Part shown: positions 54,160 through 63,368 of the stretch, piece after piece | Position numbering within the stretch: position 1 is the stretch's first letter | Layout: each line of letters starts with the position of its first letter | NCBI GenBank assembly: GCA_000004695.1 | Contig: CM000154.2 | Coordinates: 3,360,001-3,424,000, forward strand | Length of the DNA stretch: 64,000 nt | Source of the DNA: Dictyostelium discoideum | Lineage: Eukaryota | Reading direction: 5' to 3' | Notes under the pieces: generated by a model | Told to the model about the DNA's origin: nothing | Seen by the model: the letters and a program-made list of their open reading frames with translations, nothing else | Databases searched by the model: none | Translations under genes and position numbers: made by a program

Positions 54160-55489
54160 TATTATTTTTATTGACGAAATTTGATTAAGTAAAATTTTAA
54201 TATAAAAATTCTATCTACAATTATACTATTTATAATTTACCACTAATAAAAAAAATATTAATTTGATAAAAAAAAAAAAAAATAAAAAAAAAAATAAAAA
54301 AAAATATAAAAAAATAAATAAAAAAAAATAAAAAAAAATAAAAATAATAATTGGCACCACACAAAAAAATTTTTGGTTTTGTTTTTAATTTTTTTTTTAT
54401 TAATTGAAATTTCATTTAATAAATTCTATTTTTATCAATTATTATTACTTTTTTTTTTTTTTTTTTTTTTTCATAATATAGATTTATAAAAAATAAATCA
54501 AAGTATTGAAATTAAATTAATTATTTCTTTGATGATTTTATTTTTATTTTATTTTATTTATTTTTTTATTTTTTTTTTTTTTAATTTTCCATTGTGATAC
54601 TCAAATAATAAAAAAAAAATATTGGTGATTGATGAATTAAAAATATAATTTTAATCATTGGTAATGGTATTATAAACTTCTTTTGCACATAGAAATTAAA
54701 TTTTTTTTTTTTTTTTTTTATGCAGTTAAATTTTATTATTTCCAAAAAAAAAATAAAATCACTGCCTTCCTAAAAAAAAAAAAAAAATATAAAAAAAAAT
54801 TAAAAAATAATAAAATTCGATGAATCTTTTTTTATGAGATTTACAGGGCATGCAAAGATATCCCAAAATATACACTCAAAAATTCGAAAAAAAAAAAATT
54901 ATTTATTTTTATTTTTTTTTATTTTTTTTTTATTTTTGATACACACAACTTAATTTTTATATGGTAGCATAAAAATTTATTTTTTTTTATTTTTAATTTT
55001 TGTTTTTTTTTTTTTAATAATTTTTTTTTTTTAAAATTTTTATTTCCCAATTAAATTTTTTTTTTTCTTTATTATTTTTAAGTCTTTCATCACATTATTA
55101 TTATCTCTCATTATTTTCTAAAATTATTTTTTGTTTTCCTAAAATTTTAAAAAAAAAAAAAAGAAAAAAACCAATGGGTATGTTATTATCATCACTCTTT
55201 TACTTTACACACACAACAAAACCTATATGTTTTTTTTTTTTTTTTTTTTTTTTTTTTTTTTTTTTCCACACGGAGCCTTTTTATAAATTTTTTTAAATAA
55301 ATTTATTTCAATAAAAATAAAAATTTAATAAAAATAAATTTTTTCCTTTTTTTTAAAAAAAAAAAAAAATTAAAAAAAAATTAAAAAAAAAAAAAAAAAA
55401 AAAAAAAAAAAAAAAAAAAAAATACTAATATTAAAAAAAAAAAAAAAATTATTTTATTAAATAAAGAATTTTTATCAACATCCCAGTCA

Positions 55490-60674: not shown

Positions 60675-63368
60675 ATGGGGATGATATCATCAGTTATATC
60701 TCTTAGGGAACAACAACAACAACAACAACAACAACAACAACAACAACAACAACAACAACAACAACAACAACAACAACAACAACAACAACAACAACAACAA
60801 CAAAATCAGCAACAAATAAATCTACAATATCAAAATTTACAAGAGCACTGTCCTCAAAACCAATCACATAATCAATCACATCAACAAAAACAAAATAATT
60901 CTACACAAATACCATTAGTTCAAAATAATCAACAAAATTTGGAAACATTTTCAATAAGTATTTTGGATGAAAATTTTAACAATAGTGGAATCCTATCAAT
61001 GTTTGGAGAGAAATGTAAAAAACCCAAATTTCCACATTCCTCTATTGACCAATATCAAAATTTACCATCAGACATTAAAATGATCGTTGAAAACATATCA
61101 AAAATGAGTAACTTTTCAACCCAAGAAGAGATAGTAAGTGTTACATTTAAATTTGCCTTTTTCTTGACCAACTTATCTGAAAAAACATTGAAAATACTTC
61201 ATGATAGTATTTCAATCTTCAACAAAATAGAAGATTTATTTTTTCAAATATTCTTACCACAATCAAATTTAATTCCAGAAATATACCTAAAAGAATATAT
61301 TTTGAATTTGTTTTCTCACCTTTGTGAAAGAGAACATTTTTTAGTTTTCAATACTTTAAAGCTGCCACTAAATTTCATGTTTTTGTGTAGGTCATATTTT
61401 GAATCATTTGATCGCTTGGATAAAATACAACAAAATCAACAATTACAAATTCAACAACAAAACCAACAACAAAATCAACAACATTATAATAATAATAATA
61501 ATAATAATAATAATAATAATAATAATAATAATAATAATAATAATAATAATAATAATAATAATAATAATAATAATAATAATAATAATAATAATAATAATAA
61601 CCAACAACAACAAACACACCTCCAACAACAATACCATAATTATAATAATAACTTTCCAATAACATCTATTAATATTCAACAACAACAACAACAACTACAA
61701 CCAATTGATATCCAACAACTCAATATCAATAATTCACAAAATAATCAAAATAATATTCAACTTGAGCAACCAATTAATCATCAAAATCAAAATATTTATC
61801 AACAATTCCAACAATTTCCAAATCAAGTTCCCTCAAATCAAAACCTAGTTGGAAATGATATTTTTGATACTTCAATTATCACCATTCCTCAAAATAACAT
61901 TTCTTCTTCTCAACCCTCATTTTTACAACAATCACCTCCTTTAACACATCATCCATCATCAACTCAATTAGTAAATAATAATTTATATCAGTTTGATAGC
62001 AATAATCAACAACAATTTCAAATTCATTATACTTCTCCTTCCTTTATTGGTGCTCTTGCTTCTATTAATAATAATAATACTACTAATAATATAAATTTTG
62101 ATAATAGTGGTAATACTACAACAACAACAACAACAACAACAATAACAACCACTACAAAGACAAGTAATAATCATAATAGTAATGATAATGTTATAATAAA
62201 TCCTAATGGAAGTTTCCTTCACACTATACCACAAGAATACAGAACTAAAGGATCAAAAATTAATTTATCAAGAAAGATAAATAAATCTCCAAAGGGTGTA
62301 ATTAGTCCTAAATATAGATCAATATTACCAAGATTTGGGTTTAAAATGAAAGATTTAGAAGAGAGATCAAATATTAATGGAGAAAATTATATAAGGAGTA
62401 GAAAAGGTGTTGCAACTTTAATAAATACTTATTTAACACCAATTTCAGCTGAAATGAGTACAAAAAGAGAAAGTAAATGTGGTGTTGTAATTTGTATTAA
62501 AGATCATGATCAACATTCAAGTGTTTCCATTGTACCTAGATTGTATCCAATGTCAAATGGATCCAAAGATGGTGTTGAAAAATTTGTTTTTCATAAAAAT
62601 GTTATTTCCATCGTTTGTCCAGGAGTATTTTCACATAGTTACTCTGTAAATAGATTAGACCGAAATCAAAGAGGATTTTTCATTAGATATAGTTTTTATA
62701 TGGGTAAAGAAGAAATAGATTATGTCCATACACCAATAATTAGATATAAAAATACTCCCTCAGATTTCGATCAACCATCAAGAGTTTTATTAGGTCATGT
62801 AATATCACTTCATCCTGTCACTCAAAATGGCATAGTTGCTGTTAAATTCATTGCAATTTCAAATCTTTTAAAAAAAGGTTTAATTACTAAAAATATAACA
62901 ACTTCAACATCAAATTTAATAAATAATGAAAATAATAATGAAAATAATAATAATTATAATGGTAATATTAATAGTAATAATAATAATAATGAAGAAATTG
63001 AAGAAGAAGAAGAAAATAATAATAGTAGTGGTGGAAGTAGTGAAGATGATGATAGTGATTCAAAAGTTAAAGCAACAAGAATGGGTAAACCTTTGGAAAT
63101 TATATTATATGAAAAGAATCTTCAATTCCATTTAACAATTCCTCAACATATTAGTAAAGTAAATCCAGAAGATAAATGGAGGTTCCCTGAGACTCTCATT
63201 ACCGAAACTAATGATCCTAAGAAATCAAAAAATTCGAGTGAAATCATTCATTTTGTTTCATCTTATTTGATTGAATTCGCATGTATTATTCCAAGAGGTA
63301 ATTATGAGATAATTTTTAGATATGAAAATGTCAACAAAACAGTTCACCCAATTTATTATTCAATTTAA
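60675..63368 (+). CDS. Q/N-rich putative nuclear regulatory protein, paralogue of 55490..58369, with (CAA)n poly-Gln and (AAT)n poly-Asn tracts. It probably has additional 5' coding sequence upstream, where the frame is open from 60351.
   Basis: ATG at 60675 (MGMISSVISLREQQQ...). The same frame is open and coding-like for >100 codons upstream (...SSPILSASPSLSPRFQDILENNSVSINIQSS...). The C-terminal domain matches the paralogue (PKGVISPKYRSILPRFGF...NGENYIRS...PEDKWRFPETLI...PRGNYEIIFRYENVN). Confidence 0.55.
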   Translation: MGMISSVISLREQQQQQQQQQQQQQQQQQQQQQQQQQQQQQQQNQQQINLQYQNLQEHCPQNQSHNQSHQQKQNNSTQIPLVQNNQQNLETFSISILDENFNNSGILSMFGEKCKKPKFPHSSIDQYQNLPSDIKMIVENISKMSNFSTQEEIVSVTFKFAFFLTNLSEKTLKILHDSISIFNKIEDLFFQIFLPQSNLIPEIYLKEYILNLFSHLCEREHFLVFNTLKLPLNFMFLCRSYFESFDRLDKIQQNQQLQIQQQNQQQNQQHYNNNNNNNNNNNNNNNNNNNNNNNNNNNNNNNNNNNNNNQQQQTHLQQQYHNYNNNFPITSINIQQQQQQLQPIDIQQLNINNSQNNQNNIQLEQPINHQNQNIYQQFQQFPNQVPSNQNLVGNDIFDTSIITIPQNNISSSQPSFLQQSPPLTHHPSSTQLVNNNLYQFDSNNQQQFQIHYTSPSFIGALASINNNNTTNNINFDNSGNTTTTTTTTTITTTTKTSNNHNSNDNVIINPNGSFLHTIPQEYRTKGSKINLSRKINKSPKGVISPKYRSILPRFGFKMKDLEERSNINGENYIRSRKGVATLINTYLTPISAEMSTKRESKCGVVICIKDHDQHSSVSIVPRLYPMSNGSKDGVEKFVFHKNVISIVCPGVFSHSYSVNRLDRNQRGFFIRYSFYMGKEEIDYVHTPIIRYKNTPSDFDQPSRVLLGHVISLHPVTQNGIVAVKFIAISNLLKKGLITKNITTSTSNLINNENNNENNNNYNGNINSNNNNNEEIEEEEENNNSSGGSSEDDDSDSKVKATRMGKPLEIILYEKNLQFHLTIPQHISKVNPEDKWRFPETLITETNDPKKSKNSSEIIHFVSSYLIEFACIIPRGNYEIIFRYENVNKTVHPIYYSI

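Follow-up and report, generated by a model that had tools for sequence, protein, structure and literature searches.

This article concerns two neighbouring genes in a 64,000-nucleotide window of the Dictyostelium discoideum genome (GenBank assembly GCA_000004695.1, contig CM000154.2, positions 3,360,001 to 3,424,000 of the forward strand; all coordinates below count from the first letter of the window). Both are read from the forward strand (+), and both were listed as open reading frames (ORFs): gene 1 at 55490-58369, with a TTG start and 959 codons, and gene 2 at 60675-63368, with an ATG start and 897 codons. Sequence comparison makes it very likely that they are intact, tandemly duplicated members of a very small, uncharacterised family, the named members of which come from group-4 Dictyostelia and from Polysphondylium violaceum. 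An earlier reading of the same DNA, the initial annotation, proves largely right about gene structure in outline and wrong in detail, and its assignment of the pair to the CudA-like family is wrong.

The window has a guanine-plus-cytosine (GC) content of about 20% and carries long polyasparagine (poly-N) and polyglutamine (poly-Q) tracts, as is typical of Dictyostelium. As a sister genome we used assembly GCA_054859385.1 (labelled D. discoideum), the orthologous locus of which, L001, is about 89% identical to the window in DNA sequence, with conserved gene order; non-coding DNA is about 84% identical. The gene 1 orthologue from that assembly is KAM9970359.1 (P0001).

The kinship of the two genes is clear once the right parts are compared. 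Full-length BLASTP was swamped by low-complexity sequence and gave only a weak match in the middle region, so the domains were compared separately; when BLASTP was run on the C-terminal part alone, the last ~350 amino acids proved 41% identical and 60% similar (E 2e-82). This bears out the initial annotation, which had described tandem paralogues with a common C-terminal domain, and every C-terminal motif that it listed is present in both genes. It had also called the proteins Q/N-rich, and glutamine and asparagine together make up 26% of the gene 1 protein and 30% of the gene 2 protein, with longest N runs of 46 and 38, respectively.

Relatives are few. A word-indexed protein search returned no match with the gene 1 C-domain, although the C-domain of P0001 is 92-95% identical to that query, and none with a profile of the helical domain described below. 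Because this search missed relatives inside its own collection (P0001 and P0004), its negatives are untrustworthy for an AT-rich, low-complexity proteome, and its patchy index made an exhaustive search with hidden Markov models (HMMs) necessary. An exact-sequence look-up of three candidate protein models found none of them in the protein collection. The exhaustive search, with a profile of the two paralogues against 1.84 billion cluster representatives, returned four proteins: P0001, D. purpureum DICPUDRAFT_99132 (F0ZWJ6), P. violaceum CYY_004568, and one JGI/IMG metagenome cluster. A second P. violaceum paralogue, CYY_007613, was added by profile search. The three named relatives from the HMM search are annotated as "hypothetical" or "uncharacterized," and all named relatives recovered come from Dictyostelium, D. 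purpureum, or P. violaceum, the metagenome cluster being of unknown origin. Pfam gave nothing credible for the two window proteins and four relatives (E up to 1), and PDB sequence profiles gave no match for either the C-terminal or the helical domain (the C-domain profile at E up to 10).

The duplication itself can be placed. The single D. purpureum copy lies in an unrelated gene neighbourhood, and in a neighbour-joining tree the split between gene 1 and gene 2 falls after the divergence of D. purpureum and before the split between the window and L001, which marks the tandem pair as a lineage-specific duplication. The two P. violaceum members lie on different contigs (locus L003 on AJWJ01000164.1, and protein P0006) and their C-domains are 84% identical; that duplication is independent of the one in the window.

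Members of the family share an order of parts. A very small first exon and a phase-1 intron precede a short N-terminal peptide with the motif aromatic-x-S-[ST]; next come a helical middle domain of ~140 amino acids, a long Q/N low-complexity linker, a basic motif ([KR][KR][VI]xK[ST]..K.G), and, directly after it, a predicted all-beta C-terminal region of two immunoglobulin (Ig)-like sandwiches, which are joined by the invariant signature RNTPS[DE]F..P and a disordered loop rich in acidic residues and serine. In gene 1 the helical domain (FKACFSPD..ISTPASD) occupies 56063-56479 and the C-terminal region 57341-58366, where the basic motif (KKVSKS..PKG), beta-sandwich 1, RNTPSEFDQP, the Ser/acidic disordered loop, GKPLE, and beta-sandwich 2 follow one another. 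The corresponding parts of gene 2 lie at 61014-61412 and 62268-63365 (SRKINKSPKG .. NTPSDFDQP .. GKPLEI .. PRGNY .. YYSI). The helical domain is conserved across the family.

What might such proteins do? The C-terminal domain may share with those of STAT, Rel, and Runt a place in one broad class of Ig-fold DNA-binding domains, and it may fold like the domains of NF-kB, Runt, and Velvet factors. The proteins would then be intracellular, probably nuclear, and would act as sequence-specific DNA-binding regulators. Beta-sandwich 1 would bind DNA in the manner of Ig-fold domains of the Rel/Runt/Velvet/STAT class, and beta-sandwich 2 would dimerise in the manner of an IPT/TIG-type domain, an arrangement like that of Rel or NFAT proteins. 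Homodimers of either paralogue, or heterodimers of the two, could then arise, and the Q/N tracts would have a role in activation or condensation. The sequence signatures RHD_DNA_bind, Runt, and Velvet have no Pfam match in six family members (E up to 1). Of the readings of their mechanism, a role as nuclear, dimeric, sequence-specific DNA-binding regulators is the most likely, and still somewhat doubtful. The explanation taken whole, that is, an intact tandem pair from an orphan family plus an Ig-fold DNA-binding mechanism, comes close to an even judgement and is offered tentatively. Its main rival takes the beta-sandwiches to be generic Ig-like interaction modules, and the proteins to be adaptors or scaffolds, nuclear or cytoplasmic, with no DNA binding of their own; we consider this conceivable and, in its own right, doubtful.

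The initial annotation was right that the ORF track had miscalled both 5' ends. For gene 1 it had pointed out that the listed start is a TTG with no in-frame ATG for 150 codons; the first in-frame methionine is indeed codon 152. When every upstream combination of ATG, GT, and AG was enumerated, the only phase-compatible model with a plausible donor had a first exon of four nucleotides at 55174-55177 (ATGG, the start codon plus one nucleotide, hence a phase-1 junction), followed by an intron of 289 nucleotides at 55178-55466 (GTATGT...AAATAAAG, GC 0.10) and by exon 2 at 55467-58369, which includes the stop codon. An alternative combination with a GTAGCA donor and a 523-nucleotide intron is phase-compatible and implausible. 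In the spliced model, which encodes 968 amino acids, the protein begins M-EFLSTSQSLQINF. The annotated N-terminus of P0001, MEFLSTSQSLQISF (MEFLSTSQ), matches it, and the P0001 gene is annotated with the same 4-nucleotide exon and has the same GTATGT donor and the same acceptor, around an intron of 283 nucleotides. Between the window and L001, the ratio of nonsynonymous to synonymous substitution rates (dN/dS) over the N-terminal 344 codons is 0.39, for which reason we take them to be coding. On this sequence evidence the gene 1 model is complete and corrected. A small 5' exon from the ATG at 55174 and an intron of ~290 base pairs had thus been foreseen; the donor was called weak and is strong, and the exon is only four nucleotides long. 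The reading MGMLLSS from that ATG fails, for the donor stands directly after ATGG and the GMLLSS codons are intron sequence. With it goes the MGM(I/L)SS N-terminus supposed to be common to both genes, which lies in the intron in gene 1 and is internal in gene 2.

The gene 2 model can be corrected in part from the sequence, the exon that bears the ATG being among candidates only. Its frame is open for 108 codons 5' of the listed ATG at 60675, from 60351, with a TAA at 60348 and an AG acceptor at 60354-60355, so that the uninterrupted frame in the window has 1005 codons; the initial annotation had already noted a coding-like frame for more than 100 codons. The chance of 108 open codons upstream of 60675 is ~3.5e-4. 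The extension has a GC content of 0.30, against 0.16 in the adjoining intron and intergenic DNA; compared with L001, it shows a dN/dS of 0.42 and in-frame indels of 18 and 21 nucleotides. It is therefore very probably coding, which makes MGMISS internal to a main exon that runs from 60356 through the stop codon at 63368.

Upstream of this main exon we place an intron of 192 nucleotides at 60164-60355 (GTTTGT...AAAACAG, GC 0.16) and a small exon of 55 nucleotides at 60109-60163 (GC 0.31), with its acceptor TAG at 60106-60108 and its donor GTTTGT at 60164. The initial annotation had predicted further 5' exons and proposed one at 60109 with a GTTTGT donor, and the exon and donor stand; its reading as MDFPQINQNLVKVSKVNK was in the wrong frame. 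Reading from the ATG at 60109 puts the GTTTGT donor out of phase with the 60355 acceptor, and the one donor that would then fit is a weak GTCATT at 60168. The +1 frame, (x)AT-GGA.., gives DGFSTNKSKLSEGFQSEQ(S), the serine being the first residue of the continuation SNNIIENNF.. across the junction; this is in phase with 60355, and the phase holds in both genomes. In L001 the ATG frame reads ATG GAT TTT CCA CAA ATA AAT TAA, a stop at codon 8, and the only substitution between the window and L001 in the +1 frame is Ser to Leu. The annotated L001 model of gene 2 (1041 amino acids), which is reproduced by two introns and not by one, takes these 55 nucleotides, up to the GTTTGT donor, for an internal exon read in the +1 frame. 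When aligned with the gene 1 N-terminus, the score of the +1 frame was reached by 63/5000 shuffles and that of the ATG frame by 3463/5000. The +1 frame also carries the family's aromatic-x-S-[ST] motif, which lies within ~12 residues of the methionine in gene 1 (FLSTS), P. violaceum (YIYFSST and HYISS), and the metagenome member (NNYSS), and in a looser version (YLTY) at the D. purpureum N-terminus. We conclude that 60109-60163 is probably an internal exon, and probably exon 2, in the +1 frame.

That frame needs an upstream exon ending in phase 1, and short first exons of this kind occur in L001 gene 1 (4 nucleotides), D. purpureum (10 nucleotides), and P. violaceum (52 nucleotides). Candidates in the spacer are given here with a slash at the exon-intron junction. 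The first exon annotated in L001, ATGACCG/GT, has as its window counterpart AGGACCGGAA and was rejected, as was the L001 site ATGTTAT/GTTTGT, which is not conserved in the window. The sole ATGN/GT site conserved in both genomes, ATGT/GTTTAT at 58662-58665, is a doubtful candidate for exon 1; it implies a 1443-nucleotide intron, far above typical Dictyostelium intron length. A weak site at 59770, ATGTA/GTTTTT, could splice directly to 60355.

The remaining probability for the 5' end of gene 2 is divided between two models, which together we judge unlikely: translation from the ATG at 60675, with the upstream frame and the small exon forming a 5' leader with short upstream open reading frames, or translation from the ATG at 60109 through the weak GTCATT donor at 60168. 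MGM at 60675 is kept in L001 (..HSMGMMSS), in the window the GTCATT join preserves the phase, a T-run and then an A-rich stretch directly before 60109 resemble a Dictyostelium promoter, leader, and start context, and the search for a conserved upstream ATG exon found none. Set against a start at 60675 are the improbably long run of open codons and an extension that is open in both genomes, with the in-frame indels, dN/dS, and GC content given above; set against a start at 60109 are the L001 stop codon and an N-terminus with no similarity to those of the family. An internal exon in the +1 frame remains our preferred model.

Some non-coding sequence at the locus is also well kept. The first ~50 nucleotides of the gene 1 intron (55178-55230) and of the gene 2 intron (60164-60215) each show one mismatch between the window and L001, far better conservation than in the remainder of either intron. 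In the spacer between the genes (58620-58700, 59820-59860, and 59985-60000), short blocks containing G or C, such as AATGTGTTTATTGCGCGAACTAAATTTTT, ATTCCACCGTTTCAT, and GACCGG, are nearly invariant, whereas the surrounding DNA is ~84% identical with many indels. These blocks are candidate regulatory elements or pieces of an unrecognised exon.

Purifying selection appears to act on both genes. Our dN/dS estimates cover the three parts of gene 1, at 0.31-0.40, and the 5' extension of gene 2; because of these values (0.31-0.42 overall) and because the C-domains of the window and L001 are 95% identical for gene 1 and 97% for gene 2 (the latter over ungapped columns), both copies look constrained. 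In L001, an annotated intron of 401 nucleotides (11338-11738, GTAATA..CCAG, corresponding to ~56.5-56.9 kb of the window) removes the poly-N tract of gene 1, whereas the window ORF is continuous there. That one copy is a decaying pseudogene, as might be suggested by the L001 gene 1 orthologue, whose N- and C-terminal parts stand in different frames across the poly-N tract that the annotator spliced out, is very improbable given that both window ORFs are uninterrupted (959 and 1005 codons), that the dN/dS values are low and the C-domains much better conserved than non-coding DNA, and that the frame change sits in an (AAT)n repeat, a kind of sequence prone to misassembly. The L001 frame change may be either a real frameshift or an assembly error.

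The initial annotation had also raised the possibility that the pair belongs with CudA, and the comparison of the C-terminal domain with CudA, which it had itself suggested as a check, found no similarity, a result that it had named as refuting. An HMM of 16 CudA-family sequences, taken from the trimmed alignment of PMC8808424 and run in hmmsearch with filters off, scored 0 bits or less on all 8 members of our family, with matches confined to low-complexity tracts. In hhalign, the family profile against the CudA profile gave a probability of 0.14% and an E of 0.41, like a reversed-sequence control, and the reciprocal search was equally without match. The test has power, since a CudA profile built without its most divergent subgroup still detects the omitted sequences (55-104 bits, 99.7%). 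The CudA core (VVVKNxPF .. LxYD .. ELRIKVLSSQxED..F .. PI[KR]V[VI]SKPxQ.KKK) was not detected in family members by HMM or hhalign, and no alignment of the family domain to it could be obtained; two short segments, of 3 and 5 amino acids, are required for DNA binding in Entamoeba CudA. A by-eye likeness of GVVITVKN.. to CudA VVVKNNPF.. was rejected by both methods.

According to Kin et al. 2022 (PMC8808424), CudA-like genes fall into five orthogroups, and cdl3 is preceded on the same strand by cdl1a, an arrangement that raised the possibility that the window pair is cdl1a-cdl3. This was ruled out: none of four cdl1a primers matches the window when up to 2 mismatches are tolerated, and no supplementary alignment of that paper contains any of six motifs diagnostic of genes 1 and 2. 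Neither gene is in the recognised lists of D. discoideum cudA-like genes, and CudA-like genes span Amoebozoa, whereas members of the present family turned up in group 4 and P. violaceum alone. CudA-like membership is rejected as far as sequence homology can be detected, and that the genes are divergent STAT-like regulators of the Cud/Cdl/SpaA type is very improbable.

Elsewhere in the window, the order of scramblase gene, gene 1, and gene 2 is conserved in L001: the ORF at 52976-53692 (-), just upstream of gene 1, is the counterpart of a syntenic L001 gene annotated as a scramblase (PF03803). Pfam-matched neighbours among 202-2460 (-), 23269-24690 (-), and 30166-33579 (-) comprise a poly(A)-polymerase-like nucleotidyltransferase, a Sir2-family deacetylase, and an IPT/TIG-domain protein. 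An ORF of 775 amino acids at 20796-23123 (+) consists almost wholly of GGNSGGAT / GNTGG / SGAATAAN repeats (Gly/Ser/Asn/Thr/Ala) with a hydrophobic tail, FGIFVLSMIIYLVI, and has no Pfam match. It lies in a GC-rich block at ~20-24 kb, where local GC is 0.40-0.47 against ~0.2 elsewhere, and the long antisense ORFs over it, at 20335-21567 (-) and 20939-22648 (-), probably owe their existence to the repeat. Neither an Rfam nor a tRNA scan of the window gave a match.

The present practical value of this work is modest: one gene model is corrected, a second partly so, and a wrong family assignment is removed. On present evidence we have a narrowly distributed orphan family with a possible Rel/Runt/Velvet-like fold, which is ordinary for a Dictyostelium genome. 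A stronger claim, which we consider unlikely as things stand, is that Dictyostelia possess a hitherto unrecognised family of Ig-fold transcription factors, Rel/Runt/Velvet-like and restricted in lineage, which underwent a tandem duplication on the D. discoideum line and a separate duplication in P. violaceum. Curated inventories give this structural class as missing from the group, and the Rel homology domain (RHD) and Runt are listed as absent from Dictyostelia (Forbes et al. 2019); if the C-terminal domain is truly Rel/Runt/Velvet-like, Dictyostelia would gain a transcription factor family that sequence-based inventories have missed, much as the fungal Velvet domain was discovered by way of its structure. 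The family would also have been duplicated in the clade that saw new somatic cell types evolve. Given that the named members come only from group 4 and P. violaceum and that the duplication is recent, the family would then be a candidate source of lineage-specific novelty in development; an event of this type has been shown for cdl1a and cup cells.

Among known systems, STAT proteins (Dictyostelium STATa-d and human STAT6) differ from the family, which by Pfam has no SH2, coiled-coil, linker, or STAT domains, and STAT6 ranked below the Rel, Runt, and Velvet matches. The CudA-like transcription factors (cudA, spaA, cdl1a/b, cdl2, and cdl3; PMC8808424; Yamada et al. 2018, PMC5923282) differ in showing no sequence or profile similarity, in lacking the extra helical domain and second beta-sandwich, and in range, being found in Dictyostelia groups 1-4 and other Amoebozoa as against group 4 and P. 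violaceum. They are alike in being Q/N-rich Dictyostelium proteins with a beta-rich conserved region that basic residues follow, and cdl1a-cdl3 is likewise a same-strand tandem pair; the same functional class, developmental DNA-binding regulators, is plausible for genes 1 and 2. Listed among the closest known systems are the Rel homology proteins (NF-kB p65/p52/c-Rel and NFAT5) and, related to them in structure, the fungal Velvet domain (VeA, VosA, and VelB; PMC3876986) and the Runt domain (RUNX1).

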